This document shows, in pieces, positions 482 through 16,429 of a stretch of DNA of 64,000 nt (the first letter of the stretch is position 1; each line of letters begins with the position of its first letter). The stretch comes from a virus (Duplodnaviria > Heunggongvirae > Uroviricota > Caudoviricetes). The position numbers were made by a program, and so were the translations under genes. The notes under the pieces were generated by a model. The model was not told the DNA's origin, searched no databases, and worked only from the letters and a program-made list of their open reading frames with translations. The stretch is taken from IMG/VR virus record IMGVR_UViG_3300049444_000130; one strand, given 5' to 3'.

Positions 482-3352
482 ATGGCGGACACCAATCCCA
501 AGATTACGCTGACCGCGCAAGACAATATGAGCGGCCCGCTGACGTCGATTGCAGCGGCCCTCAAGCGCTTGGAGACGGCGGGGGAAGAGAACCTCGCGTG
601 GGTGACCCAGCTCGCCGCTGGCTTTGGCGGTCAGCAACACGCTGCCGAGCAACTCAGTACGGCGCTCCAGGGCGTGCAGACGCAACTGGCAGCGGGCATC
701 ACGGCACAGCAAGCCAACGCCACTGCGACCCAGGGGGCCACCCAGGCACTGACGCAACAAACGCAAGCGGTCACCGCCACCGGCACCGCCTGGCAGTCCA
801 TCCTCAGCATCGCTGGAGGCGTCGGCATTGCCACCAGTATCAGCGCCATTGTCGGGCAGCTCAAGCAGTTTGTCAGCGAATCCGTGCAGCTCGCCATCAA
901 AATGCAATCCCTCACCGCCTCGTTCACGGCGATTACCGGGAGTAGTGCAGGGGCACAGCATGCCCTCGGGTTTTTGCGCAGCATTGCCGTCCAGACCGGC
1001 ACAGATTTCCTGACCCTCGCCCAGTCCTTTAAGAACTTTGAGGCGGCGGCGCGAGGCACAGCCCTAGAAGGCACGAAGGCCGAAGGCGTGTTCCGGGCCG
1101 TAACCGGCGCCGCCCGCGTCATGGGCCTGTCGAGTGCCGATACGGGCCGGGCCTTGCTCGCCCTGGAACAGATGGTGTCCAAGGGCACCGTGTCCATGGA
1201 GGAATTACGCCGGCAGTTGGGCAATGCCCTTCCCGGCGCCTTCCAGATTGCGGCCCGGGCCATGGGGACGACGACCGAAGGGCTCCAGGCCATGCTGAAG
1301 CAGGGCATCGAGAGCAGTGACTTTGTGACCCGCTTTGGTGCGCAACTGCAACGAGAATTTGGCCCGCGCCTAGCTGATGCCGGACAAACCGCCGCCGCCA
1401 CCTTTGGGCGCCTGGGCAATGAAGTGCAAGCGATGGCCACCAGCGTGGGGGCAAGCATCCTGACGATCTTGACCCCGGTAGCCAGCTTTCTCGAAAGCAC
1501 GCTGCGGAAGGTGCGGGAGACGGAAGAAGCGGCGACCCGACGGGCCAAGGTCGGGCTGGGTGGGATTCCCGAAGGCGCCACCGAGCAGGAAGCGGCACGC
1601 CTCCTTGAGTTACAGAAAAACCAAGATGCGCTGCGGGGGCGCATGGCAGGGGGAGGGCCATTCCCGCAATTTCAAGGGCTCACGGCGCAGCGAGAACAGG
1701 CCGAACTGCTTGCCATTCAAGAACAGATCAAAGCCCGTAAAGACCTCAATGCCACGTTCGCGCGGGATGTCGCCCCCTCGCCCCTGCCCGGCATCCCCTT
1801 TGCCACCGAAGCCCGCAACATTCAGAAAGAAGTCCAGACGCTCCGGGACGAACTGAAAGCCACCAATGTGCAGGCGCAGGTCTTCCCCGCCATGAGTCAG
1901 GACAAGCTCCAGAACGCCAAAGATACGCTGAAAATCCTCGAAACCAGCCTGGAGAAATTGGCTGAGCAGATCGCCCAGACCAAAGACAAAGCGCCGGGCG
2001 TGATGGAGGATCAGAAAAAGCTCCTCGCCACCTTGAACCAGGAATATGCCGAGGCCCTCGCCAATGTGACCAAACTGGAGGCCGCCAAAGAAGCGGAAAC
2101 CGAGGCCACCCGCAAAGCCGCACGGGAAGCCGAGAAGGCCGCGCGCGACAACGAACGGCGGACGCGCGACAGTGCCAAGCTCCTAGCGGAGATGGGCATT
2201 GCGGCCCGACTGGCGGACACCACCGCGCAGGCCGGCGGCGATCCCGAGGCCATGCAGGCCGCCAAGAATGCGGCGGAAGAAGCCACGCTGCGGCAGACCA
2301 TTGCGGAGAAGGGGCTGGGCGCCGCGGTGGAAGAAACGGCGGTCGCCTTTCTCCGCCAGAAGCAAGCTGCCGACGACAGCGCCGCCACGATCGCGGTCAT
2401 GGTCAAGGAGCAACGCGACCGTATCCAAGAGCTGGCCAAGGACCTCGATATCTTTGGCCTCAACCTCGCCCCAGACCAGGAGAAAGCCCTGGCCTTCAGC
2501 AAGAAAATCCAGGATGCCCTCGCCGTCGCCCAGGCCCCCAAAGAGGAACGTCCAGAAACCCGCCTCCGTGCCCTGGCCGGGAAAGAAGGCATCCCCCTCA
2601 GCCCTGCCGATGAAGCGGGCTTGCGTCAGCTCACTCTCACGCTCCAAGAACAGGCCCAGGCACGGGAGATGGAGAAGATTACCACACAGCTCGCGAACAA
2701 TATGCGGCAGACGTTTGACACGCTCTGGGAGCAGGTCTTTACGGGGGGCGTGACGTCCTTTCAGCAGCTCGGGCAAGTGGTGGTGCAGTCGCTCCAGCGT
2801 ATGTTTGCGCAGCTCACGGCGCAAATCATGAACATGCTCCTCAATGCGGCGTCCGGGACCATGGACGAGAAGGGCGGCTGGGAGGGAGCGCTCGCACGGG
2901 GGATTGTCGGCGTGGGGCTGGCAGCCCTGGGGGGCAGTGACTTTGGCTCCGATATCCCGGGCATGACGAATGATCCCGCGGTGATTGGGGATCTCCAGAG
3001 CCAGATAAATCTCCTGGGCACCAGCTCAGCGGGGGGCAATGTTTTTCCAGGGTTGGGCACCATTCGCATGCTGGCCGGGGGCGGCATTGTGAATCGCCCA
3101 AGTTTCACCACTATTGCCGAGATGGGCCAGCCCGAGGCCGTGGTCCCCTTGAGTGGTGGGCGGTCGATTCCCGTGGAAATGCGGGGACAGCAGCCTGCCG
3201 GGAATCAGCCCATCGTCATTGAAATTCACAACGATTACACCAATGCCGTCAGCCCGAGTGCACTCAAAACTGGGAAGAAAGAGATTATTCAACATTTTAT
3301 AAGCGACTACAACGCCGATGGGCCGACCCGTCGTACCATCAAGGCAGGATGA
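482..3352 (+). CDS. phage tail tape measure protein (TP901-family core region)
   Basis: 956 aa, Ala/Gln-rich and coiled-coil. Contains the conserved tape-measure core segment ALEQMVSKGTVSMEELRRQLGNALPGAFQIAARAMGTTTEGLQAMLKQG. Many nested out-of-frame ORFs on both strands are GC artefacts. Confidence 0.9.
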   Translation: MADTNPKITLTAQDNMSGPLTSIAAALKRLETAGEENLAWVTQLAAGFGGQQHAAEQLSTALQGVQTQLAAGITAQQANATATQGATQALTQQTQAVTATGTAWQSILSIAGGVGIATSISAIVGQLKQFVSESVQLAIKMQSLTASFTAITGSSAGAQHALGFLRSIAVQTGTDFLTLAQSFKNFEAAARGTALEGTKAEGVFRAVTGAARVMGLSSADTGRALLALEQMVSKGTVSMEELRRQLGNALPGAFQIAARAMGTTTEGLQAMLKQGIESSDFVTRFGAQLQREFGPRLADAGQTAAATFGRLGNEVQAMATSVGASILTILTPVASFLESTLRKVRETEEAATRRAKVGLGGIPEGATEQEAARLLELQKNQDALRGRMAGGGPFPQFQGLTAQREQAELLAIQEQIKARKDLNATFARDVAPSPLPGIPFATEARNIQKEVQTLRDELKATNVQAQVFPAMSQDKLQNAKDTLKILETSLEKLAEQIAQTKDKAPGVMEDQKKLLATLNQEYAEALANVTKLEAAKEAETEATRKAAREAEKAARDNERRTRDSAKLLAEMGIAARLADTTAQAGGDPEAMQAAKNAAEEATLRQTIAEKGLGAAVEETAVAFLRQKQAADDSAATIAVMVKEQRDRIQELAKDLDIFGLNLAPDQEKALAFSKKIQDALAVAQAPKEERPETRLRALAGKEGIPLSPADEAGLRQLTLTLQEQAQAREMEKITTQLANNMRQTFDTLWEQVFTGGVTSFQQLGQVVVQSLQRMFAQLTAQIMNMLLNAASGTMDEKGGWEGALARGIVGVGLAALGGSDFGSDIPGMTNDPAVIGDLQSQINLLGTSSAGGNVFPGLGTIRMLAGGGIVNRPSFTTIAEMGQPEAVVPLSGGRSIPVEMRGQQPAGNQPIVIEIHNDYTNAVSPSALKTGKKEIIQHFISDYNADGPTRRTIKAG

Positions 3353-3355
3353 GCC

Positions 3356-5158
3356 GTGAACCTGACCGAGCACCGTCACTTTGCCGATGAGCTGTATCTG
3401 AGTTTGCAGCGCTGCGAATCCGCCTATAACGTCCCCATCCTGCAATGGGACGCCACCACGGCCACGCAGCTCACCGGCATAGACGACGCCAGCGTGCACG
3501 AGCAGTGGAACGATACCCTCGTGGGCGCCGACGCCATCCGCCTAGGCTCCCGCCTCGCCGCCGTGCACGCCCTGGCCTTGCGCAGCATGCTACTCCCGGT
3601 CACCCTCCCCCGGGTCACGCTCCACGCCCTCACGGGCTTGCTGGGGTTGACGCTGGGCCAGGTGACGACCGTGCAACAACTGGTGCCGTTGGTCCCCAGC
3701 TATCGGCACCGGCTGACGCTGGCCCCGCCGACCCAGCTCCCGAGTATCAGTGCACAAATCGGGCATCTGCAGAACGTGTACGCGCTCTATGGCGGGATCA
3801 AGGGGGACAGCTTTACCCTCCAGAACAACAGCGCCTATCTCCGTCTGACCACCCAGCTTATCGGCGCGGGCAGCCGGGTCGAAAGTACGGGCACGTTCCC
3901 CCGGGCGCTGACGCTCCTCACGACGGGCACGCCCCCCGAGGCGCACCGGATCGCCGATGCGGCGGCAGGGGTGTGGTATGTCTCCCCGGATGGCACCGGC
4001 AGCCTGCTCATCGATACCGTGCCCCCAGCGGGTGTGAGTCTGAACGTGGGTACGGGCCTGACGTTGCGCAGTATTCCCGGCCCGCGCTACCGCCTCGGCG
4101 TGGGCACGGAGGGCAGCCTGGAACTGCCGGTCGTCAGCACCGCACCGGCGGGGCTCCTCGAAGTCGCAGCCCTGCGGGATGCGACGGGCACCACCTGGTA
4201 CCTGTGGATGGACGGCGACACGCTGACCCTGGATGTGACCCTGCCCCCGCCCGCGCTCGTGCCCCGGGAGGAGCCCGCGTTGCGCTGGGGGACGGGACGG
4301 ATCTGGCTGGCCGACGTCACGGACACGCCGGCGCCCATCCCCCTCTTTCTGACCCAGGGGGCGCCCAATATTGGCCCGGCGCCACTGGAGGTGTCCAGTC
4401 GCGTCGTGGGGCTCACGCTCACGGGGGAGAATCATCTGCTGGCGACCGACGCCTATCGCCTGGCCAGTGGCGCCGTGCGGAGTAATTTCCACGCCGCCCA
4501 CCAGGCCCTCACCGTGACCCTCCAGCTCGAAGTGGACCCGGCGCGGGAGGCCGCCGACCTCGCCGCCTATCTCGATCAGCGCCTCCTGGCCCTGGAGTGG
4601 CAGTGCCTGCAGGAGGCGGTGACCATCGTCCTGGTGACCGCGGGCACGCCGCCGCTGTGGCATCAGGTGACCGACAGCGGCGGGGGCACCTGGTATCTCG
4701 GGGTCGATGTCCTGGGAGAACTCACGGTGAGCGACACGTCCCCAGGCGGCAGTGGGCTGGTCGTCGGCACGGGGCTCCAGCTCCTGGCCCTCGACGGCTG
4801 GCGCTATCGCCTGGGGGTGGATGGGTTGGGACAGTATCTCCTGACCCAAACCACGTTGGTCGGCCCCACGCCGCCGCGCACGGAGATGGGTGCGCTCCGC
4901 GACCCCAGTGGCGGCACCTGGTACGTGTGGCCGGATGGGTTTGGGGGCGTGGAAGTCTCCGCCACACCCGTCCTGCCCTACTGGCACCACGGCTTTGCCT
5001 GGCTGTTTCCTCGGCTGCAATGGCGCGCCCTGGTGCGGTCGACGCAAGCGCAAATGGATATTCTCGAACTTACGGGCACGGTCGAGGAGACGCCGCCCGA
5101 GGAGCCCGTCGTGCTCGATGTGTGGAATGCCCAACCGGGCTATGTCCAACTGGCGTAG
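3356..5158 (+). CDS. phage tail protein with internal repeats (distal tail / tail-associated)
   Basis: GTG start 1 nt after the tape measure stop (TGA..GTG). 600 aa with four repeats of a GGTWY(L/V)W-DG...V(T/S) motif and two RYRLGV(G/D) segments. Location fits a Dit/Tal-like gene. Confidence 0.5.
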   Translation: MNLTEHRHFADELYLSLQRCESAYNVPILQWDATTATQLTGIDDASVHEQWNDTLVGADAIRLGSRLAAVHALALRSMLLPVTLPRVTLHALTGLLGLTLGQVTTVQQLVPLVPSYRHRLTLAPPTQLPSISAQIGHLQNVYALYGGIKGDSFTLQNNSAYLRLTTQLIGAGSRVESTGTFPRALTLLTTGTPPEAHRIADAAAGVWYVSPDGTGSLLIDTVPPAGVSLNVGTGLTLRSIPGPRYRLGVGTEGSLELPVVSTAPAGLLEVAALRDATGTTWYLWMDGDTLTLDVTLPPPALVPREEPALRWGTGRIWLADVTDTPAPIPLFLTQGAPNIGPAPLEVSSRVVGLTLTGENHLLATDAYRLASGAVRSNFHAAHQALTVTLQLEVDPAREAADLAAYLDQRLLALEWQCLQEAVTIVLVTAGTPPLWHQVTDSGGGTWYLGVDVLGELTVSDTSPGGSGLVVGTGLQLLALDGWRYRLGVDGLGQYLLTQTTLVGPTPPRTEMGALRDPSGGTWYVWPDGFGGVEVSATPVLPYWHHGFAWLFPRLQWRALVRSTQAQMDILELTGTVEETPPEEPVVLDVWNAQPGYVQLA

Positions 5159-5891: not shown

Positions 5892-7604
5892 ATGCATCCC
5901 TGGCACCCTCTCCGGCACCCCTGGCTATGCCTGCTGCTCCTGCTCCTGGTCTGCCTTGTGCCTCGTCATGGGACGAGCGCGACCAAGACGGGCCTGATGC
6001 AAGAGGACGCCGGCATTGTCAACGCCCTCAAGTACGGGGCGACCACGACGGCCCGCAATACCACGACGCTCACGGCGGCAGTCGCGGCGATTGGGGCAAC
6101 CCCGAAAACCCTGATGCTCTCTGCGGGCGCCTGGACGCTGACCGCCAATCTCACCATGCCGCCGACGTTGACGCTGTGGGTGCCCCAGGGGAGCACGTTA
6201 GATATCGACAGCGGGCATACGCTCACGCACCAGGGGCCGCTCAAGGTGGACGGCTGCAACCATTTTACGGGGGCCGGGACGATCCTGCTCCCGGCCATTG
6301 CGGAACTCAACGTATGTTGGTTTGGCGCCACGGGGCAACTCGACGTGGACGATACCGCCGCGTTTCAGCGGGCCGCGCGTGCCCTGAACATGACGCCCAC
6401 GGGGGGCCATGCCACGGGCGTGGGCTGTTGTGCGCCGGTCTTCCGCATTCCTGCGGGCTCGTACAAACTCACCGCGCCGATCCAATTTACGCATGGGGTG
6501 TCCATTAAAGGCCACGGCCCCGCCAATACGCTGCTGGTCGCCTTTAATCTGGCCGGGAATACGTTTGAAACGGGGGGCATGAGCGGGACCGCAGCCCGCT
6601 TTGCGGTCGAGGACCTGACCTTCCTAGCGCTCACACCGAAAACGGCAGGGGCCGCCATTCTCGCGAGTACCCCCAATCCGCTCGACGATTCGCAAGTGCA
6701 ACTCTTCATTCACAATGTCTCGTGCCGGGGGCATTTCAACTGCTTTGATCTGCAGAATAGCGCCTATGCCCATATTGTCGACAATATGCTGGAAGACGTG
6801 CGCGGCACGGGCATCGCTATTGCCACCTCCGGCAATCCTGATGCCGGGGACAACGTCATTGCCCATAACGTCATTGCCGGGGCGGCGGGGTCGGTCGGCA
6901 TTAGCGTGCGCACGGCAGGCCAGCGGATCGTCAACAATAAAATCCTGGCCTTTAGTGTGGGCATTAGTGTCGATCCCATCTCCACGACGGTGAATGACAG
7001 CGACATTCTCATTGCCAATAATAGCATCGAACTCCAGGGCACCTTTGGGATTCTCGTCCAAACCAGTGCCCTGGGGGGGCATCTCTACCATCTCCAGATT
7101 ACCAGCAATCAGTTGGCGCTGCTCCAAGGGGGCAGCCCCTCCGCCTCGATTGCCCTGTCCGGGCTGATTTCCTACACGACGATTGCCAATAACCTGATCA
7201 CGATGGCCGCCCAGGAGGGGACCTATGCCATTCTGCTCTCCTCGAATATTCGCGGCGAGACGCCAAGCGGCTGGGCCATTACCGGCAACCATATTGCGGC
7301 CCCGAACCTGACGACGGCCATTGGCATTCAGATCCCCCAGATTACCCCCCTGGAGTATCGCGGGATGGTGATGGGGAACTATGTCACCGGGCTCACAAAG
7401 CCGTATAGCGGCAACACCGCCGCGTTTATCGGGGGGACGTTTACGAGTGCCACCCTCACTGGGTTTGGAGGGCCGGGGTCCATCGTCTATTGCGCGGGCT
7501 GCGGGGTCACCAGCGGGGCCAATAATACCTGTGCGGGCTCAGGGCCGGGTGCCATGGCGATGCTCACGGAAGCCGGGTGGAAGTGTTTCAATAATCAGAA
7601 CTAG
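5892..7604 (+). CDS. secreted right-handed beta-helix (pectate-lyase-like) protein; tailspike/depolymerase-like
   Basis: N-terminal signal peptide. NVCWFGATG motif typical of pectate-lyase-3 domains. Repeated (I/V)xNN(S/K)I beta-helix rungs. The N-terminal ~100 aa are paralogous to those of the 13156..15384 protein. Confidence 0.6.
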   Translation: MHPWHPLRHPWLCLLLLLLVCLVPRHGTSATKTGLMQEDAGIVNALKYGATTTARNTTTLTAAVAAIGATPKTLMLSAGAWTLTANLTMPPTLTLWVPQGSTLDIDSGHTLTHQGPLKVDGCNHFTGAGTILLPAIAELNVCWFGATGQLDVDDTAAFQRAARALNMTPTGGHATGVGCCAPVFRIPAGSYKLTAPIQFTHGVSIKGHGPANTLLVAFNLAGNTFETGGMSGTAARFAVEDLTFLALTPKTAGAAILASTPNPLDDSQVQLFIHNVSCRGHFNCFDLQNSAYAHIVDNMLEDVRGTGIAIATSGNPDAGDNVIAHNVIAGAAGSVGISVRTAGQRIVNNKILAFSVGISVDPISTTVNDSDILIANNSIELQGTFGILVQTSALGGHLYHLQITSNQLALLQGGSPSASIALSGLISYTTIANNLITMAAQEGTYAILLSSNIRGETPSGWAITGNHIAAPNLTTAIGIQIPQITPLEYRGMVMGNYVTGLTKPYSGNTAAFIGGTFTSATLTGFGGPGSIVYCAGCGVTSGANNTCAGSGPGAMAMLTEAGWKCFNNQN

Positions 7605-7670
7605 GGGAACCGTCTGGCCTATTTTGCTCTCGGGGGCGCGTTACAACTGTCGTTTAATCCACACTATCCC

Positions 7671-8186
7671 GTGACCCGGACGCTGGTGGCGCCGCGCCTC
7701 GCCACGCCGGTGGGGGGCGGCGCCAGTCAACTGCGCCGGCGCTACGCGCGGCCCCTCTACCAATTTACACTCAACGAGACCCAGAGCACCCGCGCGGAGG
7801 CGACCGCGTTGCTGGGGTTTCTCACGTTTGTGCAGGGGGATATCCCGTTTTTCTGGAGTGGCGGCGAGTGGGGCACGCAGAATACCCCCCTCCTCGTGGG
7901 CTATGGCGATGGCGTGCGCCAGCAGTTCTTGCTGCCCAACCGGTACATCACGGGAAACCTGGAGGTGCAGGTCAATGGCGTGGCGATCCCGACCCCGGGC
8001 CTCGATGGGGCGACCGGACTCCTCAGCCTCCCCACGATTGCCTGGGGGGCCCTGATCACCGCGACCTATACCTGCACGTACCGCGTGACGCTGTGGCAGG
8101 AGGGCGAGACGCTGGCCACCGAGGAGAATATCGCCCTGGGGCTCTTTCGCCGGCAGGGGATCGTGTTCCGGGAATTTCCGTTCTAG
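7671..8186 (+). CDS. conserved phage tail protein, possibly DUF2460/GTA-gp12-like
   Basis: 171 aa. The gene order here (tape measure, this gene, BR0599-like, NlpC/P60, host specificity) mirrors GTA/HK97-like tails. Sequence-level assignment is not verified. Confidence 0.35.
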   Translation: MTRTLVAPRLATPVGGGASQLRRRYARPLYQFTLNETQSTRAEATALLGFLTFVQGDIPFFWSGGEWGTQNTPLLVGYGDGVRQQFLLPNRYITGNLEVQVNGVAIPTPGLDGATGLLSLPTIAWGALITATYTCTYRVTLWQEGETLATEENIALGLFRRQGIVFREFPF

Positions 8187-8283
8187 GAGGCGTGGGACGA
8201 AAAGTTTCAGTCAAGAGTATATCAGCGCACTCAATCGTCTCGACCAGACGGGCGGATTCTTTTGCGCCGGCATCGCGTTTGAA

Positions 8284-8709
8284 GTGGGGGATGTGGCCGG
8301 CACGACCCTCTACTTTGCGGACGTGCAGACGCCGTTCACGTTCGAGAACCATGCGTACCAGCCGCTCCTCCTGCGCTTTGACGGTCTGAGTCAGGCAAGT
8401 CAGCAGCAGTTGCCGGCGGTCAGTGTGACGGCGCCCAATATTGATGGCCAACTCGGGGCGTGGCTTGAAGTCCATGACGTGTGTGGGCTGATCATTATTC
8501 TGTACCTGTTTCACCTGGACGCAATAGGGCAGGCGACGGAAGCGGATCGGGTCCGGCTCAGTATCCTGGCCGCCGAATGGGATTGGTTGCAAGCAACGTT
8601 GCATTGTGGGTTGGATCTCGGTTTATCTGAGGTGCTCCCAAGAACACTCTATAATGCCCTGGAAGAGCCAGGCAGCCCCGAAGGACTACGCCGTGCCTCC
8701 ATTTTGTGA
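8284..8709 (+). CDS. conserved phage tail protein, possibly DUF2163/BR0599-like (GTA gp13-like)
   Basis: 141 aa from the first ATG. The start may lie upstream at a non-ATG codon. Assignment rests on position only. Confidence 0.3.
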   Translation: MGDVAGTTLYFADVQTPFTFENHAYQPLLLRFDGLSQASQQQLPAVSVTAPNIDGQLGAWLEVHDVCGLIIILYLFHLDAIGQATEADRVRLSILAAEWDWLQATLHCGLDLGLSEVLPRTLYNALEEPGSPEGLRRASIL

Positions 8710-8710
8710 C

Positions 8711-9373
8711 TTACTCTTGCAGCATCCACCAGACGCGCAAGGCGCGTTGCGCGGAGGCCCACGCGGCGGGATCAAAGGGCCGACCGAGGGCCTCCATTTC
8801 GGCCTGGACATGCGCCTGTTCAACGGCAAAGGTGGGAGGCGGCGAGGTCAGGCCCGCGTACATATTTTGGTATTTGACCAGCTGATCCTGCTCGGCTTTG
8901 ACAAAACGGAGCCCGGCAAAATGTATCCGCAATTGCCGGATGTCCATCGTGGACCCCGCGGCGACCAAGCCGACGAACGGAATAAAGCTGGCGGCGTGGG
9001 GCGTCGAGGTCATGGCCACGTAGACCCACGTACTCTGGTCGTCCGGAAGGTACAGGACATCGGCGGGTTGACCATAGCGGCGGGCCAGCGCCTCTTTCGT
9101 CATCGTGGTCGTGAGTGTGCCCGTGTGGACATCGGGCAAGGCGGGGGTGAGGGCCTGGGTACAGCTCAGCAGCATCAGACTGAGCCAGAGAATCAGACAG
9201 CCGAGGAAGGTCTTGCCGGCATCCTTCAGCGCCGTTGTTGTCGTACTCCAGGTATGGAGGCGTGACTGCATGAGTCGTGAAACTTCCTTGCTGGCGGAGG
9301 TGCCGTGCTCCAGGCAGGCAATGCGAAAGGCACGCCACACCGCGTCATCGAGATACAGAGTTACTTTCGTCAC
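8711..9373 (-). CDS. opposite-strand moron: ribbon-helix-helix N-terminus fused to, or overlapping, a lipoprotein (lipobox LLSC)
   Basis: Minus-strand ORF embedded in the + strand tail operon. The N-terminus MTKVTLYLDDAVWRAFRIACLEHGTSASKEVSRLMQ is CopG/RHH-like. Then FLGCLILWLSLMLLSC (signal peptide plus lipobox) and a ~150 aa periplasmic domain. GC3-rich codon usage favours this strand over the antisense ORF 8606..9265. Confidence 0.45.
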   Translation of the reverse strand: MTKVTLYLDDAVWRAFRIACLEHGTSASKEVSRLMQSRLHTWSTTTTALKDAGKTFLGCLILWLSLMLLSCTQALTPALPDVHTGTLTTTMTKEALARRYGQPADVLYLPDDQSTWVYVAMTSTPHAASFIPFVGLVAAGSTMDIRQLRIHFAGLRFVKAEQDQLVKYQNMYAGLTSPPPTFAVEQAHVQAEMEALGRPFDPAAWASAQRALRVWWMLQE

Positions 9374-9430
9374 CGTCGTCTCCTTTGCCTATGCATTCAT
9401 ACGTCATTACGTAAAGCAGTCTATCAACCC

Positions 9431-10258
9431 ATGCGTGCTTCGGCAAGGACAGCTATGAAAATTCTTGTGGCTGGTCAACCGAGATCTGGCACGAGCGCCC
9501 TGTTTTTCCAGCTCCAACACGCCATGCCCCCAGACACCCTGACCCTCTTTGAGCCTGCCACCTTGGACGGGACGGGCTGGGACACGGCGCCCCAGAGTGT
9601 GGTGAAAACCCTCGTCGCCAGTCTCCCGGGGGACACCACCCCACCGGTCGACCCCCTGCTGTTTGACCGCCGGTATGTGCTTGTGCGTGACCCTCGGGAC
9701 CGGCTCATCAGTCTGCTCCTCTTTCTGCCGCACTGGAGCACTGCGGCGTATCCGCCGCTCTGGCGCACGCGCGCCCTGGAGTTAAGCCACTATGTCGCTA
9801 CCCTCCGCACCAAAGTCCTCGACCCCGCCCGCGTGCCGACGTGGCTCCTCTTTGAGCGCTGCATGCGACTGCGCTTCGGCTGGCGGCATGGCGAGGCGCT
9901 CCCGACGCTGCACTACCTCCAACAGACGTTTCTGCACTGGCATGCCACCCTCCCGGACCACGAGACCGTGTTCTATGAGGCGCTGACCATGGCGCCGTGG
10001 GGGCAGGGGGTGGATGCCCTCCTCCCACGCGCCTACGCCCGCGTGCTCCGCCGTGGGCTGGTTGGTGAGTGGCGCCAGTGGTTCACCCCCGAGGATTGCG
10101 CCTATTTCCGGCCCGTGTTTCAGCCGTACCTGACCTGGTATGGCTATGACAATGACTGGACCCTCTCTGACACGCCCCAGATTGACCACGCGACCAGCAT
10201 CCGCTATCTGGAGACCTGGCTGCGCGTTGACAGGAGGGCTGCCCGTGCGTCTGCCTGA
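9431..10258 (+). CDS. sulfotransferase-fold protein (PAPS-binding motifs)
   Basis: KILVAGQPRSGTSALF resembles the 5'-PSB P-loop (PKSGTTW). YVLVRDPRDRLISLL resembles the 3'-PB motif (RNPRDxxVS). The track ORF starts at 9305; an in-frame start at 9431/9455 is more plausible. Confidence 0.5.
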   Translation: MRASARTAMKILVAGQPRSGTSALFFQLQHAMPPDTLTLFEPATLDGTGWDTAPQSVVKTLVASLPGDTTPPVDPLLFDRRYVLVRDPRDRLISLLLFLPHWSTAAYPPLWRTRALELSHYVATLRTKVLDPARVPTWLLFERCMRLRFGWRHGEALPTLHYLQQTFLHWHATLPDHETVFYEALTMAPWGQGVDALLPRAYARVLRRGLVGEWRQWFTPEDCAYFRPVFQPYLTWYGYDNDWTLSDTPQIDHATSIRYLETWLRVDRRAARASA

Positions 10259-10643
10259 TCCAGCGCCCGTCCTGGCCGCTCTGCAAGCGCTCGTGCTCCA
10301 GCACGTGCCGTGGTCCCAGGGCGGGCTCGATCCCGCCACGGGGCTGGGGTGCTATGGGCTGGTGGCACTCGCGTTCGCCCAGGTGGGTATCAGCCTCCCC
10401 CCCACGGCGGAGGAGGGGCAGGACTGCTTTACGATGATTCCCCCGCCGTATCAACCGTTTGATGTGGCCCTGATGCGCTTTGCATCCCCGCTGACGGCCC
10501 GGCATGTCGGGGTACTGCTCACCCCGACGACGGGCTACCAATGTTCCTGGCTCACGAACGGGGTGTCACAGTTTTGTATTCACGAGAATATCTGGAAACG
10601 CACCTTTCGGCATGGCTTGCGGTACAAGGAGTTTCTGGGATGA
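10245..10643 (+). CDS. NlpC/P60-family cell-wall peptidase (lambda gpK / GTA gp14-like tail protein)
   Basis: GTG start with a GGAGGG RBS overlapping the upstream stop. A GLGCYGLV catalytic Cys context and a downstream HVGVLL His. The stop overlaps the next gene's ATG (ATGA). Confidence 0.55.
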   Translation: MRLPDPAPVLAALQALVLQHVPWSQGGLDPATGLGCYGLVALAFAQVGISLPPTAEEGQDCFTMIPPPYQPFDVALMRFASPLTARHVGVLLTPTTGYQCSWLTNGVSQFCIHENIWKRTFRHGLRYKEFLG

Positions 10644-13156
10644 GACTCACCGTCACCGCGCCCTTTGACCACGAGCGCCACCTGCAAGTCCCTGCCGTCC
10701 CGGGGCAGACGCTGGGGACCTGGTTCCAGCCCCACGTCTACGAGCACATCACCGCCTGTATGGTCAATGGAGCCTTTCGCGACGACTGGCCGGCCTACGA
10801 GCCCCAGCCCACCGATCACATCCGCCTGTACCTGCGCACCGGCGCGCTCTTTACCCTCGGGGCCACCGCCACCATCTGGGGCATCCTGGCCACTGCCGCC
10901 ATCACCGCCGCCGTCAGTACGGGGGTGTCGATAGGCCTCGGGATGATCATGGGGAAGTTACGGAGCAGCGGGTCGGGGGGAGGCGTCACGCCGCATCAGA
11001 CCGAAGGCAAGGCGGAAAGTGCGTTCGGCATCAGTGGGCGCACCAACACCACGGCCCAGGGCACCCCGAAACCGCTCTGTTACGGCCACCAGCGCGTCTA
11101 TGGGCATATCTTGACGACGCGGGTGGCCCTGGCCGATGAGGGCCGCGCCCTGGCGTTCGGCATCCTGTACAGCCTGGGGGAAGGCCCGGTGGCGTCGGTG
11201 TACAACCCCCAGATTGACGATGTGGACCTCGCCCAGTTTCCGGGAGTCGAGGGGTATTCCCGGCTCGGGGGGGCCGACAATGCCGCGCTCATCCATGCCG
11301 ACTTTGCCACCCTCTCGCAAGTGTGGAGTGATGGACGCCAGCTCCCGCTCGCGCAACCCCTCATCTATCAGACGCGGAGTAGTCGCACGACCAAAATCAC
11401 CCTGTTTCTCTTTCTCCCCTTCCTGCGCACGGCGGAGGGCCTGGCGGCGGGGATGCATTTCCAGGTCGAAGTCCGCGCCATTAATGACCCCACCTGGATT
11501 CTCGCCTCTGCAGCCGTGTTCTGGAGCGGCCTGAGCAACGCGGGGCGCTTCTTCCCGCTCGACTACACGCTGCCCAGCGCCAATCAATGGCTCGTCCGCA
11601 TTACGCTCCTGGATACCACGGTGCAAGAAGGCGTGCTCCCCACGCTCTACGACGTGATGGAAGAGCAAGACGGCAATCCGCTCTATCCCACGCTGGCACT
11701 GTTGGCCATCCGAGGCATCTCCTCGGCGCAGATCCAATCGTTTGACGCCATGCGGGGGTCGGCCATGGTGCAGGGGCGCCTCGTGCCGGTCTGGAACGGG
11801 ACGAGCTTTACGACGCAATGGTCGCAGGGCCGCGCCTGGGTGCTGTACGACCTGCTCACCGAACCCCGGGTCGGGCTCGGGCATCGCCTCGATCCGTCCC
11901 TCATTGATGTCGCCTCGTTCCATTTCGCGCAAGGCTACTGGGATGACCAGGCGGGGGCCAACGTCAACATCGCCCGGGATCGCTGTAACGTGCTCATCAA
12001 TGACCGCCGCCCGGCCTGGGATTGGATCAAACTGCTCCTGGGAGAAGCCCGGGCCGCGCTGATTCCGTCGCAGGGCCTCCTCAAGCTCGTGGTCGATCGC
12101 CCGGGCGAGCCCGGCTTGCTCTACAGTCACCCGGGCAATATCGTGGAAGGCACGGTCCAGGCGAGCCAGGGGAACGGCCAGGGCGTGCGCCCCAACACGA
12201 TCTTCGTCCAATTCCCGGATGAGGTGATTGCCAACCGGCCCCACCTCCTGATCTACCGGGAGCCGGGCAGCGAAAGCGAGCCGCAGCGGGAAGCTCCGGC
12301 GGTGACGCTGGTCAGTCTCAGTGGGTACGAGCATGCGTACTGGATGGCACGCTATACGCTGTTGCGGCAGCGGCTCGTGCAACGGCAGGTAAGTTGGCAC
12401 AGTCCGCTCGGGGCGCTGGTGTCGGAACCATTTGACCATGTGGCCGTGAGTTACGATACGCCCAATTTTGCGCGGGGCACCTCGGGGTTTCTCAGTAGCG
12501 ATAGTACGGTGGACCGCCTGGTGCTCGATCGCCTCGTCACCCTCGAACCCGGCCAGGGCTATACAGTCCTGGTGCGCCATCAGGCCACGAATAGCATGGA
12601 GAGTCGCGCCGTCCTCGGCACCGGCGCGGTCGCCGTGGGGGTGCTGCTCCTCACCGCACCGCTCGGCACGGTGCCCGACGCGGGAGATCTCTACGCGCTC
12701 GGGGTCACCAATACCGCCCTGCACCATCTCGTGCTGGAGCAGGTCACCCAGGACGGAGACCAGGGCTGGCAGCTCGTGGGCGGGGTCTATGCGCCCACCC
12801 TGTATGACTATCCCGTGCCGCCGGCCTCGCCGCTCCCCGCGCCCGCACCGCTCAGTAGCAGTGCCGGGCCGCCGGAGGCACCCCTGCTCGAGGGCGTGGA
12901 AGACACGGAGGGGGGCTTTCTCATGCTGACCTGGAGTCTGCCGGCCGTGCCGGCCGGGGATAGCCTCGTGGGCTTCCACGTGTGGTTTAGCGTCACCGAT
13001 GAGGTGCATTTTCTCTTCTACGGCGATATCGGCATGGAGACGACCATGATTCGGACACTCACCGGGCAGGCCCCAGGCTGGTACGCCGTGCGGGCGCTCA
13101 GTACCCTCGGGGGAGCAGGCCCGCTCTCCAACCACTTTCATGTCGCGGGGATCTGA
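10640..13156 (+). CDS. host specificity / central tail fibre protein (lambda J-like, GTA gp15-like)
   Basis: 838 aa immediately after the NlpC/P60 gene with an ATGA overlap. A large beta-rich protein with a C-terminal FN3-like segment (LTWSLPAVPAGDSLVGFHVWFSV). The track ORF starts further upstream, at 10541. Confidence 0.6.
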   Translation: MRLTVTAPFDHERHLQVPAVPGQTLGTWFQPHVYEHITACMVNGAFRDDWPAYEPQPTDHIRLYLRTGALFTLGATATIWGILATAAITAAVSTGVSIGLGMIMGKLRSSGSGGGVTPHQTEGKAESAFGISGRTNTTAQGTPKPLCYGHQRVYGHILTTRVALADEGRALAFGILYSLGEGPVASVYNPQIDDVDLAQFPGVEGYSRLGGADNAALIHADFATLSQVWSDGRQLPLAQPLIYQTRSSRTTKITLFLFLPFLRTAEGLAAGMHFQVEVRAINDPTWILASAAVFWSGLSNAGRFFPLDYTLPSANQWLVRITLLDTTVQEGVLPTLYDVMEEQDGNPLYPTLALLAIRGISSAQIQSFDAMRGSAMVQGRLVPVWNGTSFTTQWSQGRAWVLYDLLTEPRVGLGHRLDPSLIDVASFHFAQGYWDDQAGANVNIARDRCNVLINDRRPAWDWIKLLLGEARAALIPSQGLLKLVVDRPGEPGLLYSHPGNIVEGTVQASQGNGQGVRPNTIFVQFPDEVIANRPHLLIYREPGSESEPQREAPAVTLVSLSGYEHAYWMARYTLLRQRLVQRQVSWHSPLGALVSEPFDHVAVSYDTPNFARGTSGFLSSDSTVDRLVLDRLVTLEPGQGYTVLVRHQATNSMESRAVLGTGAVAVGVLLLTAPLGTVPDAGDLYALGVTNTALHHLVLEQVTQDGDQGWQLVGGVYAPTLYDYPVPPASPLPAPAPLSSSAGPPEAPLLEGVEDTEGGFLMLTWSLPAVPAGDSLVGFHVWFSVTDEVHFLFYGDIGMETTMIRTLTGQAPGWYAVRALSTLGGAGPLSNHFHVAGI

Positions 13157-15384
13157 TGCAGTTACCTCGATCGCTCCTGCTCGGAGGGCTCTTCCTACTC
13201 GTGCTGGCCCGGGCCAGCACGGCGCAACCCTATGGGCCGCCCTACCATACGCTCAATCAAGAAACCATCGGCATGGTCGACATCGCCCGCTCGCCGTACG
13301 GCACGGCCCTGAATTCCGCCACGTTGGCCGCCGCCGTAACGGCCCAGGGCAGCGCGCCCCATTTGCTCCTCCTCAAGTGCGGCACGTGGACCTTGACCAC
13401 CAGCCAGGTCATCCCCGAGACCTTACGCCTCTGGGTGCCGCTGTGTACGACCGTGACCGTGGGCGCGGGCGCCATCCTCACGCTTCAGGCGCCGCCGCTG
13501 GTGGATCAAGAACAATGGTGGAGCGGTCCAGGCCAGGTGGTCTTGGACTTTGTGGTCACCCCACCTCATACCGCCGTCGGGGCCGCCGGCAGTCTCCAGG
13601 CGGCAGATGGGCTCGGGGGCCTGGCGGCGTATAGTGGGTCAGGCGCCTGTGCCGCAGGCCAGTTTATGTCGGAGCTGCTGCCCACGGGGCTCAAAATCTG
13701 CGGCACGCCGGTCTCCCCCAGTACCACGGGCCATCTGCTCACCGACCGCGTCGAGCCGCTCATTCCCAACGCCATCAATCTGGGCGCCCTCTCCTCCGGC
13801 TTGTTGCGCACGACCACCAGTGGTGGGGTGGCCGCCGTGACCACCGTGCCCCTGCCCGCAGGCGCGCTCGTCGGGACGGACGCGGTACAAACGCTCACCA
13901 ACAAATTTGTGGCCCTGCGCGTCGTGCCCGAGGCGACCAATGTCACGCCCGTCGTGATTGACCTGTCGAATACGGATATGACGGTCATCAGTGAGCTGCT
14001 GCAAAATACGCTGATCACCGATCCCCTCGGCAGCTCCGGGACCGGGCAACTCCTCTGGATGCTCGTGCATTCCACGCTCCCCCGGCTGCTCACCTGGAGT
14101 GCCACGTGGACGGGCGACAGCGGCATCCCGCTCCCCACCACGACCACGGGGGGGAGTACGTTTGATCTGTTCGCGTTCCTCTACAACCCCATCAGCGGCA
14201 AATTGGTGCTCGCCTACAATTCCCAACTCCTGCGGCCCGATCCCGCCTCGGGGGTCACCCCTGGGGCCTACACCTGCCCGGCCACGCTCAGCGTCGATGT
14301 GCATGGGCGGATTACGGCCCTCACGAGTGGCACCTGTGGTGGGAGCAGCGGCACGGCGGCGGGGGTCAAAGGCGATGTGCAGCTCAATGGCGGTGGCGTG
14401 CTCGCAGCGGACACCGGCACGCTCTCGCACGATGTCTCAAGCCACATCACGTATACGCAGGGACTCCAGGCGGGCGCCGGCAGTGGCTATGTGGAGTTGA
14501 CCGATGTCCACGGCTTCAAGGGCTGGCTGTTCCCCAGTGATCTGACCAGCGAGCGGGCCTGGAAGCTTCCCAACACGAGTGGCACGCTGGCGCTCCTCAG
14601 TGACATCACCGCCGGCAGCGGCGCCGCGATTAGCGGGGTCCCGACCACCGGCCAACTGGCGACATGGACCAACGCCACCACGATCCAAGGCGTGACCGCA
14701 CTCCCCGCCGCCAACTTCCCCGCCTTGACGGGGGACGTCACGACGACGGCAGCCAGCCTCACGACCACCATTGCGGCGGGGAGCGTCAGCCTGGCCAAGA
14801 TGGCCAATCTGGCCACCGCCACCCTGATTGGCCGCACCACGGCAGGGACCGGCGTGCCGGAAGCATTGACGGTGCTCCCCGCCGCGCTCGAACCGGCGCA
14901 CACGGGGGACGTGACCAATAGCGCCGGGTCGCTCGCCCTCACCATTGCGGCCAATGCGGTGACGTCCGCCAAGATGGCGGCGGCGAATACCTTCCGCACC
15001 TGTACGATGCTGGCGGGGGTGGACAATGGGCCGGTCTTAGTCGATGCGGACCTGGGACCGCAGCTGCACCAGTGTCTCGTGCCGGTCGCCTCCACCATTG
15101 TGGAAATTGTCGTCTATGCCGATGCCGGCACGCCTAACGTGATTGTTCATCGTCGCACAGGGACGACGAATACTGCGGTCCTCAGCAGTGCCCTGGCGAC
15201 GGCGGCCAGTGGGGCGCTCGCGTGTAGTAAGACGACGGGCGTAGCCGGGATTGCAGGAACGACCTGTAGCGCCACGCTCCAAAATACCACGGTCGGCGCG
15301 GGGGATACGCTGGGGCTCACGAGTGGGAGCGCGGGCGGAGTCGCCAAGCGGATGAGCGTGGCGATTGTCATGACCGTCAACTAG
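13156..15384 (+). CDS. tail fibre-like protein with signal-peptide-like N-terminus
   Basis: 742 aa and Thr/Gly/Ala-rich. Internal repeats LTGDVTTTAASLTTTIAAGSVSLAKMANLAT and HTGDVTNSAGSLALTIAANAVTSAKMAA. The N-terminal domain is paralogous to the 5892 protein. Confidence 0.5.
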   Translation: MQLPRSLLLGGLFLLVLARASTAQPYGPPYHTLNQETIGMVDIARSPYGTALNSATLAAAVTAQGSAPHLLLLKCGTWTLTTSQVIPETLRLWVPLCTTVTVGAGAILTLQAPPLVDQEQWWSGPGQVVLDFVVTPPHTAVGAAGSLQAADGLGGLAAYSGSGACAAGQFMSELLPTGLKICGTPVSPSTTGHLLTDRVEPLIPNAINLGALSSGLLRTTTSGGVAAVTTVPLPAGALVGTDAVQTLTNKFVALRVVPEATNVTPVVIDLSNTDMTVISELLQNTLITDPLGSSGTGQLLWMLVHSTLPRLLTWSATWTGDSGIPLPTTTTGGSTFDLFAFLYNPISGKLVLAYNSQLLRPDPASGVTPGAYTCPATLSVDVHGRITALTSGTCGGSSGTAAGVKGDVQLNGGGVLAADTGTLSHDVSSHITYTQGLQAGAGSGYVELTDVHGFKGWLFPSDLTSERAWKLPNTSGTLALLSDITAGSGAAISGVPTTGQLATWTNATTIQGVTALPAANFPALTGDVTTTAASLTTTIAAGSVSLAKMANLATATLIGRTTAGTGVPEALTVLPAALEPAHTGDVTNSAGSLALTIAANAVTSAKMAAANTFRTCTMLAGVDNGPVLVDADLGPQLHQCLVPVASTIVEIVVYADAGTPNVIVHRRTGTTNTAVLSSALATAASGALACSKTTGVAGIAGTTCSATLQNTTVGAGDTLGLTSGSAGGVAKRMSVAIVMTVN

Positions 15385-15902: not shown

Positions 15903-16429
15903 AGCAGCGGTCCTCTCTCCTCCACGGATTTTTGGCCACCATGCTCCTCATCGCCTGGTACGTGTCCCCAAGTTGGGGCGCGGCTGTGGTCACTACCTGG
16001 AAACGGGGCGCCGTCGATACCTGGCTGACCAACTCGACCGATGTCACCAATAACAGTCTCATTCTCAGTAGTGCCATTACCATTACGAACACAGGCTATA
16101 CCTTCGCAGAGTGCCAGATCTTTGTGAATAGTTTTAGTGGCACCGTTACGGCGAATACGGCGATTAGTGTCTGGCTGTTGACGGAAGTGGACGGGACCAA
16201 TTATGACGATGGAGGGACGTCGGTCACCCCGGCACGCCTCCCGGACATCGTGTTTCCGCTCCGGGCGGTCTCCACGGCACAACGCGTCGGGGTGAAGAAT
16301 GTCCAAGTCCCAGCAGGACTGTTTAAGGCTTTGGTGAAAAACGATGGGACCGGGGTCACGATGCAAGGGAGTACGGGTGGTGTTCCGTGGACTTTAAAGT
16401 GTGTGCCTCAGACTACTCAGAGCCAGTAA
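15899..16429 (+). CDS. secreted hypothetical protein
   Basis: Start ATG overlaps the upstream stop (ATGA). Signal peptide MKQRSSLLHGFLATMLLIAWYVSPSWGAA. Beta-rich. Confidence 0.4.
   Translation: MKQRSSLLHGFLATMLLIAWYVSPSWGAAVVTTWKRGAVDTWLTNSTDVTNNSLILSSAITITNTGYTFAECQIFVNSFSGTVTANTAISVWLLTEVDGTNYDDGGTSVTPARLPDIVFPLRAVSTAQRVGVKNVQVPAGLFKALVKNDGTGVTMQGSTGGVPWTLKCVPQTTQSQ

Follow-up and report, generated by a model that had tools for sequence, protein, structure and literature searches.

A ribbon-helix-helix-like domain fused to a BamE-like lipoprotein precursor and encoded against the tail operon of a temperate phage

The window analyzed here, a 64,000-nucleotide stretch of the IMG/VR virus record IMGVR_UViG_3300049444_000130, comes from a temperate, siphovirus-type phage and carries, between the L-like and K-like genes of its tail module, a cassette that faces against the late operon. 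The module includes the tape measure (482..3352), an M-like gene (7671..8186), an L-like gene (8284..8709), an NlpC/P60 K-like gene on the other side of the cassette and a J-like gene (10541..13156). The cassette itself is a single open reading frame of 220 codons (8711..9373, - strand) that starts with GTG and ends with a stop codon (8713..8711) convergent with that of the L-like gene. The Shine-Dalgarno sequence AAGGAG (9380..9385, - strand), 6 nt upstream of the GTG, is among the best in the window, with an anti-SD duplex dG of -8.7 kcal/mol, whereas the background averages -3.2. On the far side, an 81-nt intergenic region (9374..9454) separates this start from the ATG (9455) of a divergently oriented sulfotransferase-like gene. 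The product combines a predicted ribbon-helix-helix (RHH) domain, a linker, a lipoprotein signal sequence and a lipoprotein with a predicted BamE fold. The locus is best read as a 'moron'-type accessory in which a small RHH regulator is followed by a lipoprotein precursor. The window also encodes an integrase (43110..43982), which bears out the prophage setting proposed in the initial annotation, and a Bro-N protein. The same annotation described the ORF as the only - strand gene of the late block, and this is true under a coarse, GC3-based gene call; the remaining - strand ORFs in the first 21.9 kb (1..21.9 kb) resemble shadow frames, such as 16417..17019 (-), opposite a + strand Laminin_G_3 protein. 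A blastn search of 7600..13200 against phage GenBank records gave no match.

The - strand ORF is a real gene under purifying selection. Its GC content by codon position (GC1/2/3 = 0.61/0.49/0.75) resembles that of the flanking late genes, and the codon-position counts of substitutions relative to two relatives (83/53/41) show an enrichment of position 3. By the NG86 method, dN/dS is 0.26-0.37 for the mature lipoprotein, compared with two diverged relatives, and 0.11 for the RHH part. The same ORF sequence recurs, without a single change, in five independent assemblies (L006-L010); these five extra contigs are at least 99.97% identical and represent a single phage genotype. Together with the tail neighbors, the coding statistics and dN/dS uphold the view of an opposite-strand accessory gene within the tail module. 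The alternative, with the + strand ORF 8606..9265 (219 aa) as the true gene and the - strand ORF as a shadow of it, would leave the late block entirely on the + strand, and the antisense frame is likewise open in the related lineage L001 (7959..8624), but its probability is vanishingly small. The GC1/2/3 values of the antisense frame are 0.72/0.49/0.62, with GC3 below GC1, the reverse of all late genes; its dN/dS is 1.17, with 30% protein identity to L001; it has no Pfam match; and database homologs exist for the - strand product only. The antisense ORF overlaps the gene codon for codon, its own position 1 being the gene's position 3, and is a classic shadow frame of GC-rich DNA. Codon statistics and dN/dS rule it out as a gene and agree with the - strand frame being the expressed one.

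The N-terminal segment had been described as an RHH-like stretch of 35 residues. The RHH assignment stands but the length does not: aa 1-42 (9248..9373, - strand) are 64% identical, through W42, to the standalone 56-aa protein P0157 and, judged against this homolog, appear to make up a complete RHH-like domain. The predicted layout consists of the strand KVTLYLD, helix A (DAVWRAFRIACLEH), a G-T-S turn and helix B (ASKEVSRLMQSRLHTW), that is, the strand-helix-G-x-S/T-helix order within ~40-45 residues that is shared, at the same size, by the CopG/Arc/Mnt autorepressors and the VapB/ParD antitoxins. The Pfam matches are all weak: DUF6364 (E 0.014) and RHH_10 (E 0.19), both below threshold, for aa 1-47 of the window protein, and ParG (0.06) and RHH_10 (0.1) for P0157. 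The equivalent small genes of the related lineages L001 and L005 match RHH_1 at E~0.004, and an RHH profile that includes them matches VapB26 (5e-4) and CopG (0.02). A two-sequence RHH profile had no significant match in the PDB, and the TAL-effector matches to the RHH profile are additive repeat artifacts. An AlphaFold2 model of the full 220 aa, built from 3 sequences and of low confidence (pLDDT 42), places helices at residues 10-22 and 25-40.

The RHH domain is followed by a Thr-rich, positively charged linker (aa 43-54, STTTTALKDAGK; 9212..9247, - strand), the site of the fusion, for which alignments show no equivalent in P0157 or in the lipoprotein homologs. It retains lysines immediately ahead of the hydrophobic core, a requirement of an N-in signal anchor. 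An internal start for a separate lipoprotein had also been envisaged. Such starts do occur in frame, but the only candidate for a separate prolipoprotein is Met35 (ATG 9269..9271, - strand); there are no in-frame starts between it and Met67, which comes too late. Because the RHH domain spans 42 residues, Met35 falls within its second helix, helix B. The initial appeal of this codon lay in the resemblance of MQSRLHTW to the L001 sequence MRSLARW and in an SD-like AAGGAAG 11 nt upstream (dG -6.0). As an ancestral lipoprotein start, however, Met35 is weakened by the P0157 alignment, which assigns both features to helix B, the AAGGAAG merely encoding the conserved SKEV residues of the RHH domain. 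Initiation at Met35 would place the lipobox Cys at position 37, giving the longest signal peptide in the family.

The signal core and lipobox (TFLGCLILWLSLMLLS followed by C) span aa 55-71 (9161..9211, - strand) and contain the 15-aa segment with the highest hydrophobicity in the protein (KD 2.37). The LLSC lipobox recognized earlier holds up: ILWLSLMLLSC (aa 61-71) fits the PS51257-type pattern, [LVI][ASTVI][GAS]C after an uncharged hydrophobic core, and Cys71 (9163..9161) aligns with the sole invariant Cys in an alignment of 51 family sequences, 42 of which fit the same pattern and none of which has Asp at +2. Lipidation and cleavage at Cys71 are therefore predicted, although the Cys lies far beyond the ~15-35 residues, with an early K/R, expected of a lipoprotein precursor (the family median is 19), a displacement due to the extra length of the fused RHH domain. 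The mature exported domain would comprise aa 72-220 (8714..9160). The family is uncharacterized, and clustering at 50% identity yields at least 210 representatives; a search of a 5.8-billion-protein database with a profile of the 51-sequence alignment recovered at least 4 proteins, and an NCBIfam search found nothing. Integrases, transposases or phage genes adjoin family members in 5-6 of the 8 sampled contexts, whereas some members are chromosomal and have no phage link.

The ~150-aa domain expected past the lipobox is present and predicted to be exported, and structure prediction assigns it a BamE/SmpA-OmlA-type fold. It is modeled as a 150-aa globular domain at pLDDT ~90 and begins with a tether of ~20 aa, so that a SmpA-OmlA alpha/beta fold is predicted on a tether that is itself predicted to be lipidated. 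The alpha/beta core (about aa 91-170, 9103..8864, - strand) is followed by two C-terminal helices (about aa 183-219, 8827..8717). At the sequence level, the Pfam BamE model (PF04355) misses its threshold (E 0.2, 11.9 bits vs a gathering cutoff of 23.2), with weak matches in 9 of 51 relatives, the best at 6.9e-5; a PDB sequence search with the family profile returned nothing meaningful. Compared with BamE/SmpA-OmlA, OsmE, BLIP-like proteins and BtiO, the window protein is only 11-17% identical and stays below the Pfam threshold. Unlike BamE, it adds the two conserved C-terminal helices, which carry the family motif RVxxEMxxLGxPFD, and its family resides on phages and mobile elements, whereas BamE is a housekeeping subunit of BAM; this location argues against a housekeeping BAM role. 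Characterized proteins of this fold bind other proteins at the envelope, as BamE does in the BAM complex and as do the BLIP-type inhibitors. BtiO, a type VI secretion system (T6SS) immunity decoy, has a related fold (PMC12541434). The best predicted viral structural matches are the SmpA/OmlA lipoproteins of Pseudomonas phages B3 and PP9W2 (BFVD E 4.5e-3 and 1.4e-2), which are much shorter (80 and 128 aa), match weakly, are likewise uncharacterized and have no known RHH partner; these matches nevertheless show that lipoproteins of this fold occur in phages.

Related phages fell into only two lineages, L001 and L005. With the window phage included, all three lineages have the cassette between the L-like and K-like genes, encoded on the strand opposite to theirs, with the protein 59% and 51% identical. 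The question raised initially, whether the RHH segment and the lipoprotein are separate genes, is answered in the affirmative for both relatives: in L001 they are adjacent, with a 24-nt gap, and in L005 they share the stop/start overlap ATGA. The answer is negative for the window phage, the only one of the three lineages with the in-frame fusion, which is seen in all five independent assemblies. The RHH of the window is unrelated in sequence to those of L001 and L005, and the window and L001 become similar at the DNA level only from about 9165 onward, the position of the Cys codon. The L001 cassette contains, in addition, ORFs of 72 and 83 aa. Searches of genome contigs with the lipoprotein and the J-like protein found no further relatives of the locus, nor did scans of metagenome contigs; among viral contigs, the only match was the UViG of L001 itself. 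Genome, viral and metagenome contig scans revealed no relative with an empty site. Since the cassette is present in every known relative, the comparison does not demonstrate an insertion, and the GC content of the cassette is indistinct from that of its flanks.

The divergent region 9374..9454 is presumed to hold the promoter and operator. The - strand promoter and terminator prediction proposed in the initial annotation, run over 7600..10400, found neither a sigma-70-like promoter, by a consensus that may not be that of the host, nor an intrinsic terminator on this strand. The only promoter candidate is the weak TTGCCG(9446..9441)-N17-TAGACT(9423..9418). The sole hairpin downstream of the stop lacks a U-tract (z = -0.29) and was dropped as a terminator; the stop is only 1 nt from the convergent stop of the L-like gene, which leaves no room for one. 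Independent transcription is accordingly suggested by orientation only. An Rfam scan of the region gave no RNA family. Operator-like repeats are absent from the 81 nt upstream of the window gene, and the similarity of this region to the upstream region of P0157 is not significant (its score was reached by 460 of 2000 shuffles). In the relatives, the equivalent site carries an inverted repeat that overlaps the RHH start and the promoter; it is imperfect in L001, whereas in L005, where the RHH protein has 47 aa, it forms a 25-bp palindrome with perfect 11-bp arms. The relatives resemble RHH autorepressor operons, in which a small RHH gene comes first of two, with the stop/start overlap seen in L005 and with palindromic, operator-like repeats over the promoter. 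Unlike RHH antitoxins, the RHH protein is paired here with an exported lipoprotein rather than a cytoplasmic toxin, scores below the Pfam threshold and, in the window, is fused to its partner; a toxin-antitoxin reading was rejected given that the second gene product is exported.

The interpretation that we favor, at a probability of roughly 0.55, is that the locus is a cassette, self-regulated and expressed from the prophage, whose envelope lipoprotein has a binding partner in the periplasm or outer membrane and probably protects the lysogen. The cassette would be transcribed from the 81-nt divergent region while late transcription is off, in the lysogen or early in infection, with the RHH protein autoregulating the promoter within this region; late read-through, antisense to the cassette, would silence it during virion production. 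The main product of the strong GTG/SD start would be an RHH-linker-prolipoprotein, from which cleavage at Cys71 would separate the lipoprotein, leaving a 70-aa membrane-tethered RHH fragment. The lipoprotein part would be exported, probably to the outer membrane, where the BamE/SmpA-OmlA-fold domain on its tether of ~20 residues could bind an envelope protein that faces the periplasm, with no enzymatic activity of its own. Most likely the lysogen would be protected, either because the same phage or its relatives are denied their receptor or entry route or because some other attack on the envelope is countered. By analogy, superinfection exclusion by the lipoprotein is plausible.

The analogy is with Llp (T5), Cor (phi80/N15/T1) and Rtp45, which are likewise phage lipoproteins with a signal peptidase II site. 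These proteins are anchored in the periplasmic leaflet of the outer membrane and bind an outer-membrane protein from the periplasmic side, Llp and Rtp45 blocking FhuA and LptD, respectively, from this face; their genes lie near receptor-binding or host-specificity genes and are expressed independently of the late genes (PMC9586334, PMC12685063). The window lipoprotein differs in possessing its own RHH regulator and, compared with Llp and Rtp45 (~6-7 kDa), in the size and fold of its mature form, which has a mass of ~16 kDa and joins two helices to a BamE-type alpha/beta core. The 'Cor/Llp-type' label given initially did not survive the comparison: a PHROGs scan (E<=1) gave only phrog_3135, a family of unknown function, and no exclusion family; no sequence match (PHROGs) or fold match to Cor, Llp or Rtp45 was obtained for the window lipoprotein; and a PADLOC search found nothing. 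This lack of kinship in sequence or fold, which extends to the PADLOC models, counts against the favored interpretation, as do the missing promoter, terminator, operator repeat, GC deviation and empty site. It is also atypical for a folded cytoplasmic domain to precede a lipoprotein signal, and the fusion could impair either function.

A minority possibility is that the tethered BamE/BLIP-fold domain is an immunity or decoy protein that neutralizes a toxin or enzyme acting in the periplasm. Its target could be a T6SS effector, a bacteriocin, a lysin or the NlpC/P60 peptidase in the tail of the phage itself, and lysogens would gain an advantage when competing with other bacteria. To a similarly limited extent, one may suspect that a recent accidental fusion, in which recombination or deletion joined a foreign RHH in frame, damaged the cassette, so that the locus is decaying and its product is poorly exported, a poor regulator or both. 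The fusion is confined to one genotype (the five contigs of at least 99.97% identity), so that its persistence over evolutionary time is unsupported; the RHH is unrelated to those of L001 and L005, the onset of similarity to L001 at the Cys codon accords with modules having been swapped at a point within the signal peptide, and both a canonical lipoprotein start codon and upstream operator repeats are absent. Nevertheless, the frame is open over all 220 codons, its GC3 is normal and its SD very good, the RHH is complete relative to its standalone homolog and has a dN/dS of 0.11, the linker keeps its Lys before the core, and the lipobox and mature domain are unchanged.

Somewhat more doubtful is the converse proposition, that the fusion is functional and yields an RHH regulator tethered to the membrane by the signal sequence of the lipoprotein itself. 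After processing by Lgt/LspA at Cys71, the BamE-fold lipoprotein would go to the outer membrane, whereas the 70-aa RHH-plus-signal-peptide would stay in the inner membrane until RseP/SppA frees or destroys it; the supply of repressor would be coupled one-to-one to export, in effect 'a signal peptide that is a transcription factor'. On an equally doubtful footing, the BamE-like domain may dock on BamA or another essential outer-membrane machine and close it allosterically to phages, much as Llp closes FhuA. The least credible of these proposals places the protein in the lytic cycle instead of the lysogen, either in lysis, as a spanin-like protein or lysis regulator, or in the tail or ejection. 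The gene does sit inside a structural operon, and the gene of P0039, a distant member of the family, comes after one for a PG_binding_1 protein and two small ORFs, an arrangement reminiscent of a lysis cassette, but the opposite orientation implies a head-on conflict with late transcription, the cassette has its own regulator gene and there is no adjacent i-spanin partner. The large globular domain (150 aa, pLDDT ~90), unlike the short, proline-rich and unstructured o-spanins, led to rejection of the o-spanin reading.

Returning to the favored, lysogen-protecting cassette, its parallels in gene arrangement are the tail-region morons of lambdoid phages, such as lom and bor of lambda, which likewise add an envelope-protein gene in or near the late/tail region and are presumed to be expressed from the prophage (Cumby et al., 'The moron comes of age', PMC3594210). 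Unlike these morons, the window gene lies inside the operon and in antisense, not at the operon's end, and lacks a recognizable promoter, terminator or GC deviation; moreover, no relative of the window phage lacks the insert. If the lysogen is indeed protected, the BamE-fold binder would represent a new, much larger structural class beside Llp, Cor and Rtp45, the few phage exclusion lipoproteins that are understood to date, and the first functional handle on a family that travels with integrases, transposases and phages. The fused RHH-signal-peptide, if functional, would be an unusual link of gene regulation to protein export; if the fusion is only an accident, the locus is an ordinary prophage accessory gene. 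The cassette also illustrates modular evolution, with non-homologous RHH modules preceding the same lipoprotein and the same RHH type preceding different exported proteins: the standalone RHH protein P0157 precedes a 308-aa protein with a Sec signal, a second case of this RHH type beside an exported protein.

The ORF at 8711..9373 (-), with 220 codons and a GTG start, is the real gene at this position, as the initial annotation had assumed. AAGGAG stands before the GTG at the ideal spacing of 6 nt; its anti-SD duplex reaches -8.7 kcal/mol, whereas in-frame positions within the ORF average -3.2, and equals in strength those of the best late genes. On the + strand, an ORF at 8606..9265 overlies the gene codon for codon, its position 1 facing position 3 of the gene, which is the register where long shadow frames are expected in GC-rich DNA. 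The GC contents of the three codon positions are 0.61/0.49/0.75 in the - strand frame, resembling the late genes (GC3 of 0.74-0.85), and 0.72/0.49/0.62 in the antisense frame; substitutions with respect to two relatives number 83/53/41 at positions 3/1/2 of the - frame; dN/dS is 0.26-0.37 for the mature lipoprotein part versus 1.17 for the antisense frame; and protein identity to the related phage locus L001 is 59% versus 30%. Codon statistics and dN/dS therefore favor the - frame, and the antisense ORF, a candidate already considered in the initial annotation, is ruled out as the expressed gene by its GC3, the distribution of substitutions among codon positions and the dN/dS of 1.17. A coarse GC3-based gene call also yields this ORF as the only credible - strand gene from position 1 to ~21.9 kb, in agreement with its proposed isolation within the late block.

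The neighboring + strand genes make up a tail module of siphovirus type: a tape measure protein (482..3352; TMP_3, E 3.5e-26), a beta-helix protein (5892..7604), a DUF2460/M-like protein (7671..8186) and a minor tail L-like protein (8284..8709; phrog_396), whose gene converges with the lipoprotein gene, the two stop codons lying 1 nt apart, followed beyond the latter by a 267-aa sulfotransferase-like protein (9455..10258), an NlpC/P60 K-like protein ending at 10643 and an 871-aa J-like protein (10541..13156). The element is temperate, with an integrase (43110..43982) and a Bro-N protein (41363..42094).

A database of 5.8 billion proteins contains just three matches to the gene product. One is the identical protein, recovered from five sequencing runs on as many short contigs; the DNA of these contigs is at least 99.97% identical over 2-10 kb, so that all represent the same phage and an assembly error as the source of the ORF is ruled out. 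The other two are 168-aa lipoproteins, P0002 (59% identity; L001-L004, also IMG/VR UViG 3300047409_000788) and P0003 (51% identity; L005), which start with textbook lipoprotein signal peptides (MRSLARWGGPLLLLTGLG|C and MTPYHWLLCLSLSTLLTA|C, respectively) and align to window residues ~54-220. In both related lineages, as in the window, the lipoprotein gene lies on the opposite strand, flanked by the L-like gene on one side and the sulfotransferase-like, K-like and J-like genes on the other. GTDB genomes, IMG/VR, JGI metagenomes and GenBank phages yielded no additional relatives of this locus.

The RHH part is separately encoded in these relatives. In L001, a 67-aa RHH-like ORF stops 24 nt ahead of the lipoprotein ATG, and in L005, a 47-aa RHH-like ORF (3750..3893) overlaps it via ATGA; both proteins match Pfam RHH_1 (E~0.004, 17.6-17.7 bits) below the cut-off of 20.5. 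The presence of separate, adjacent genes in both loci thus indicates that the conserved unit is an RHH gene plus a lipoprotein gene. Operator-like symmetry precedes both RHH genes: an imperfect inverted repeat with 16-nt arms around the RHH start in L001 (7741..7778) and, in L005 (3714..3752), a 25-bp palindrome without mismatches, AATGTAACTCA-aaa-TGAGTTACATT, flanked by a TTGCAA hexamer on one side and by an RHH start lacking an SD on the other, such that this transcript may be leaderless and autoregulated. In L001, a GC hairpin (GGGGCCTGAGAGGCCCC; 7966..7982) also spans the RHH stop codon directly before the lipoprotein SD.

The N-terminus of the window protein shows no detectable similarity to the RHH proteins of L001 and L005 and is 64% identical (dN/dS 0.11), through Trp42, to the stand-alone 56-aa protein P0157; hence residues 1-42 are a complete domain, and the 35 aa originally assigned to it are too few. 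The P0157 gene is followed (L025, 185..1327) by one whose 308-aa product carries a Sec signal peptide (MWRWRLGLAGLMVLGLFGWVQAQ) and matches no Pfam domain, so that one RHH type fronts different exported proteins. Residues 1-42 probably form an RHH domain, as originally suggested: the layout is a strand (KVTLYLD), a helix, a G-T-S turn and another helix, and sub-threshold Pfam matches (DUF6364 at 0.014 and RHH_10 at 0.19 for the window, ParG at 0.06 for P0157) all point to this class. A profile of the window domain and P0157 retrieved nothing significant from PDB; when enlarged by the L001 and L005 proteins, it matched VapB26 (5e-4) and CopG (0.02).

After Trp42 comes the junction STTTTALKDAGK, which has no counterpart anywhere, and then the hydrophobic core and lipobox; DNA similarity to L001 begins no earlier than the Cys codon. 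From Met35 to Met67 there is no in-frame ATG, GTG or TTG. Met35 itself lies inside RHH helix B, and its apparent SD, AAGGAAG, is the coding sequence of the conserved SKEV, also present in the P0157 gene. Given the separate genes in the relatives, the complete RHH domain and the lack of an intervening start, the window gene is a true in-frame fusion; the initial question whether RHH and lipoprotein are two genes thus receives a yes for L001 and L005 and a no for the window, where a single frame runs without a clean internal start near the TM segment. This anatomy is highly probable. The fusion most simply would have arisen by a module swap with the junction in the signal-peptide region; that it is a damaging accident seems unlikely. 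The main product predicted from the strong GTG and SD is an RHH-prolipoprotein of 220 aa, and a 186-aa precursor initiated at Met35 is possible. Translation from a near-cognate CTG at 9229 (Leu49, -), which lacks a suitably spaced SD, would give a canonical lipoprotein signal peptide of 22 aa, MKDAGKTFLGCLILWLSLMLLS|C; its use as a start is speculative. At 9222 (-) lies an ATG in another frame, which would open with MPARP and, given an indel of 1 nt, run on into FLGCL...; speculatively, it may be a trace of the ancestral lipoprotein start.

A profile of the three lipoproteins retrieved 210 cluster representatives at E<=1e-3 (41 at <=1e-10) among 1.84 billion, most of them 160-190 aa long. In a 51-sequence alignment, the lipobox Cys, at median position 19, is invariant and aligns with the predicted Cys of the window protein; of the 51 sequences, 42 match the PS51257-type pattern and not one carries Asp at +2, which bears out the proposed lipobox. 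Other conserved motifs are GQPxDV, W.Y, PFVGLxAGG and RVxxEMxxLGxPFD. The family has no assignment in Pfam, NCBIfam, PADLOC or by PDB sequence; only 9 of the 51 members touch the BamE model, and phrog_3135, of unknown function, is the sole PHROGs match. The AF2 model built from this alignment is confident (pLDDT 88.9, pTM 0.78) and shows a signal helix and a tether ahead of an alpha/beta core, with two helices at the C-terminus. Foldseek matched it to BamE in PDB (7tt0_E, probability 0.99) and, among the viral models of BFVD, to SmpA/OmlA lipoproteins of Pseudomonas phages PP9W2 and B3. The fold is thus shared with BamE, although sequence similarity falls short of the threshold and the C-terminal extension is family-specific.

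In the genomic contexts sampled, distant members lie immediately 3' of a prophage integrase (L018, 1869..3392), next to an integrase fragment (L022), transposases (L016, L024) or a defense-type ApeA gene (ApeA_NTD1; L023, 5001..7055), and, on chromosomes, next to T2SS (L019-21). The family thus seems to be largely mobile accessory cargo. Temperate phages are already known to carry lipoprotein morons among their tail genes; new are the carriage of the uncharacterized BamE-fold family by phages, the conserved pairing of the lipoprotein with RHH modules that are exchangeable, and the joining in frame, unique to this phage, of a DNA-binding domain and a lipoprotein signal sequence.

The - strand signals expected by the initial annotation are not recognizable: a consensus scan, which may not suit the host, found no sigma-70-like promoter and no intrinsic terminator. 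The best promoter candidate (9446..9418, -; TTGCCG-N17-TAGACT) is weak and does not significantly resemble the region upstream of P0157, and the only hairpin downstream of the gene lacks a U-tract (z -0.29). We nevertheless infer independent transcription in the prophage state from how the gene is oriented, from the regulator that the cassette itself encodes and from the phage being temperate. The cassette would then be a self-regulated accessory unit, expressed while late transcription is silent; the precursor would insert N-in, with Lys50 and Lys54 preceding the hydrophobic core, and be lipidated and then cut at Cys71, delivering the BamE-fold domain to the outer membrane, on its periplasmic face, where the domain would bind an envelope protein. 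We give this scheme as a whole a probability of roughly 0.55. That the fused signal peptide doubles as a tethered transcription regulator would be striking but is improbable.

Characterized proteins of the BamE-type fold, such as BamE in BAM, the BLIP inhibitors and BtiO, a decoy for an OmpA-targeting effector (PMC12541434), are non-enzymatic binders. From the periplasmic side, Llp and Rtp45 bind FhuA or LptD and shut the phage-binding site allosterically (PMC9586334, PMC12685063). This precedent, together with the binder fold, makes exclusion of the same or related phages the leading, albeit tentative, functional guess. The window lipoprotein would work like Llp/Cor-type factors in outline, but the original label 'Cor/Llp-type' cannot be kept in the sense of homology, because PHROGs yields phrog_3135 only and Llp, Cor and Rtp45 are absent from the structural matches in PDB and BFVD. 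An immunity or decoy role ranks next and is distinctly less likely. A role in the lytic cycle is least probable, even though distant members in L012-L015 (about 800..2345) occupy a lysis-cassette-like row behind a PG_binding_1 protein and two small ORFs.

Several other features of the phage deserve mention. All three lineages have the sulfotransferase-like gene in the tail module, flanked by the cassette and the K-like gene (window 9455..10258, +; L001 6634..7449, -; L005 2894..3685, -). Its window product matches Pfam Sulfotransfer_1 slightly below the cut-off (E 2.6e-4), contains an N-terminal GQPRSGTSALF similar to the PAPS-binding loop and has no match among PHROGs; the gene and the RHH gene diverge from a shared intergenic region of 81 nt, and the two may therefore be co-regulated. 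The L-like ORF has a listed GTG start at 8284 (141 aa) with a poor SD, and its frame is open from 8188 without any upstream ATG, GTG or TTG; the residues encoded upstream of 8284 (SQEYISALNRLDQTGGFF...) match those at the start of the L001 homolog, which has 176 aa, and a strong TAGGAGG overlaps the stop codon of the preceding gene (8184..8300, +). These features suggest a non-canonical start or a coupling/frameshift event. Past the integrase, conjugative type IV secretion genes (50600..61600) encode TrbI/VirB10 (51362..52582), a VirB4/TraC-like ATPase (53027..55576) and TraU (60209..61519); the prophage adjoins or sits inside a conjugative element or plasmid. The late block encodes two right-handed, pectate-lyase-like beta-helix proteins and two Laminin_G_3 domains (5892..7604, 16387..17397, 18901..20757, +), which suggests depolymerase-type tail spikes or fibers and a capsulated or EPS-producing host; the 570-aa protein among these also has a very hydrophobic N-terminus. 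Just past this block, 24427..25239 (-) encodes an SPFH/Band 7 protein (Pfam E 7e-36).
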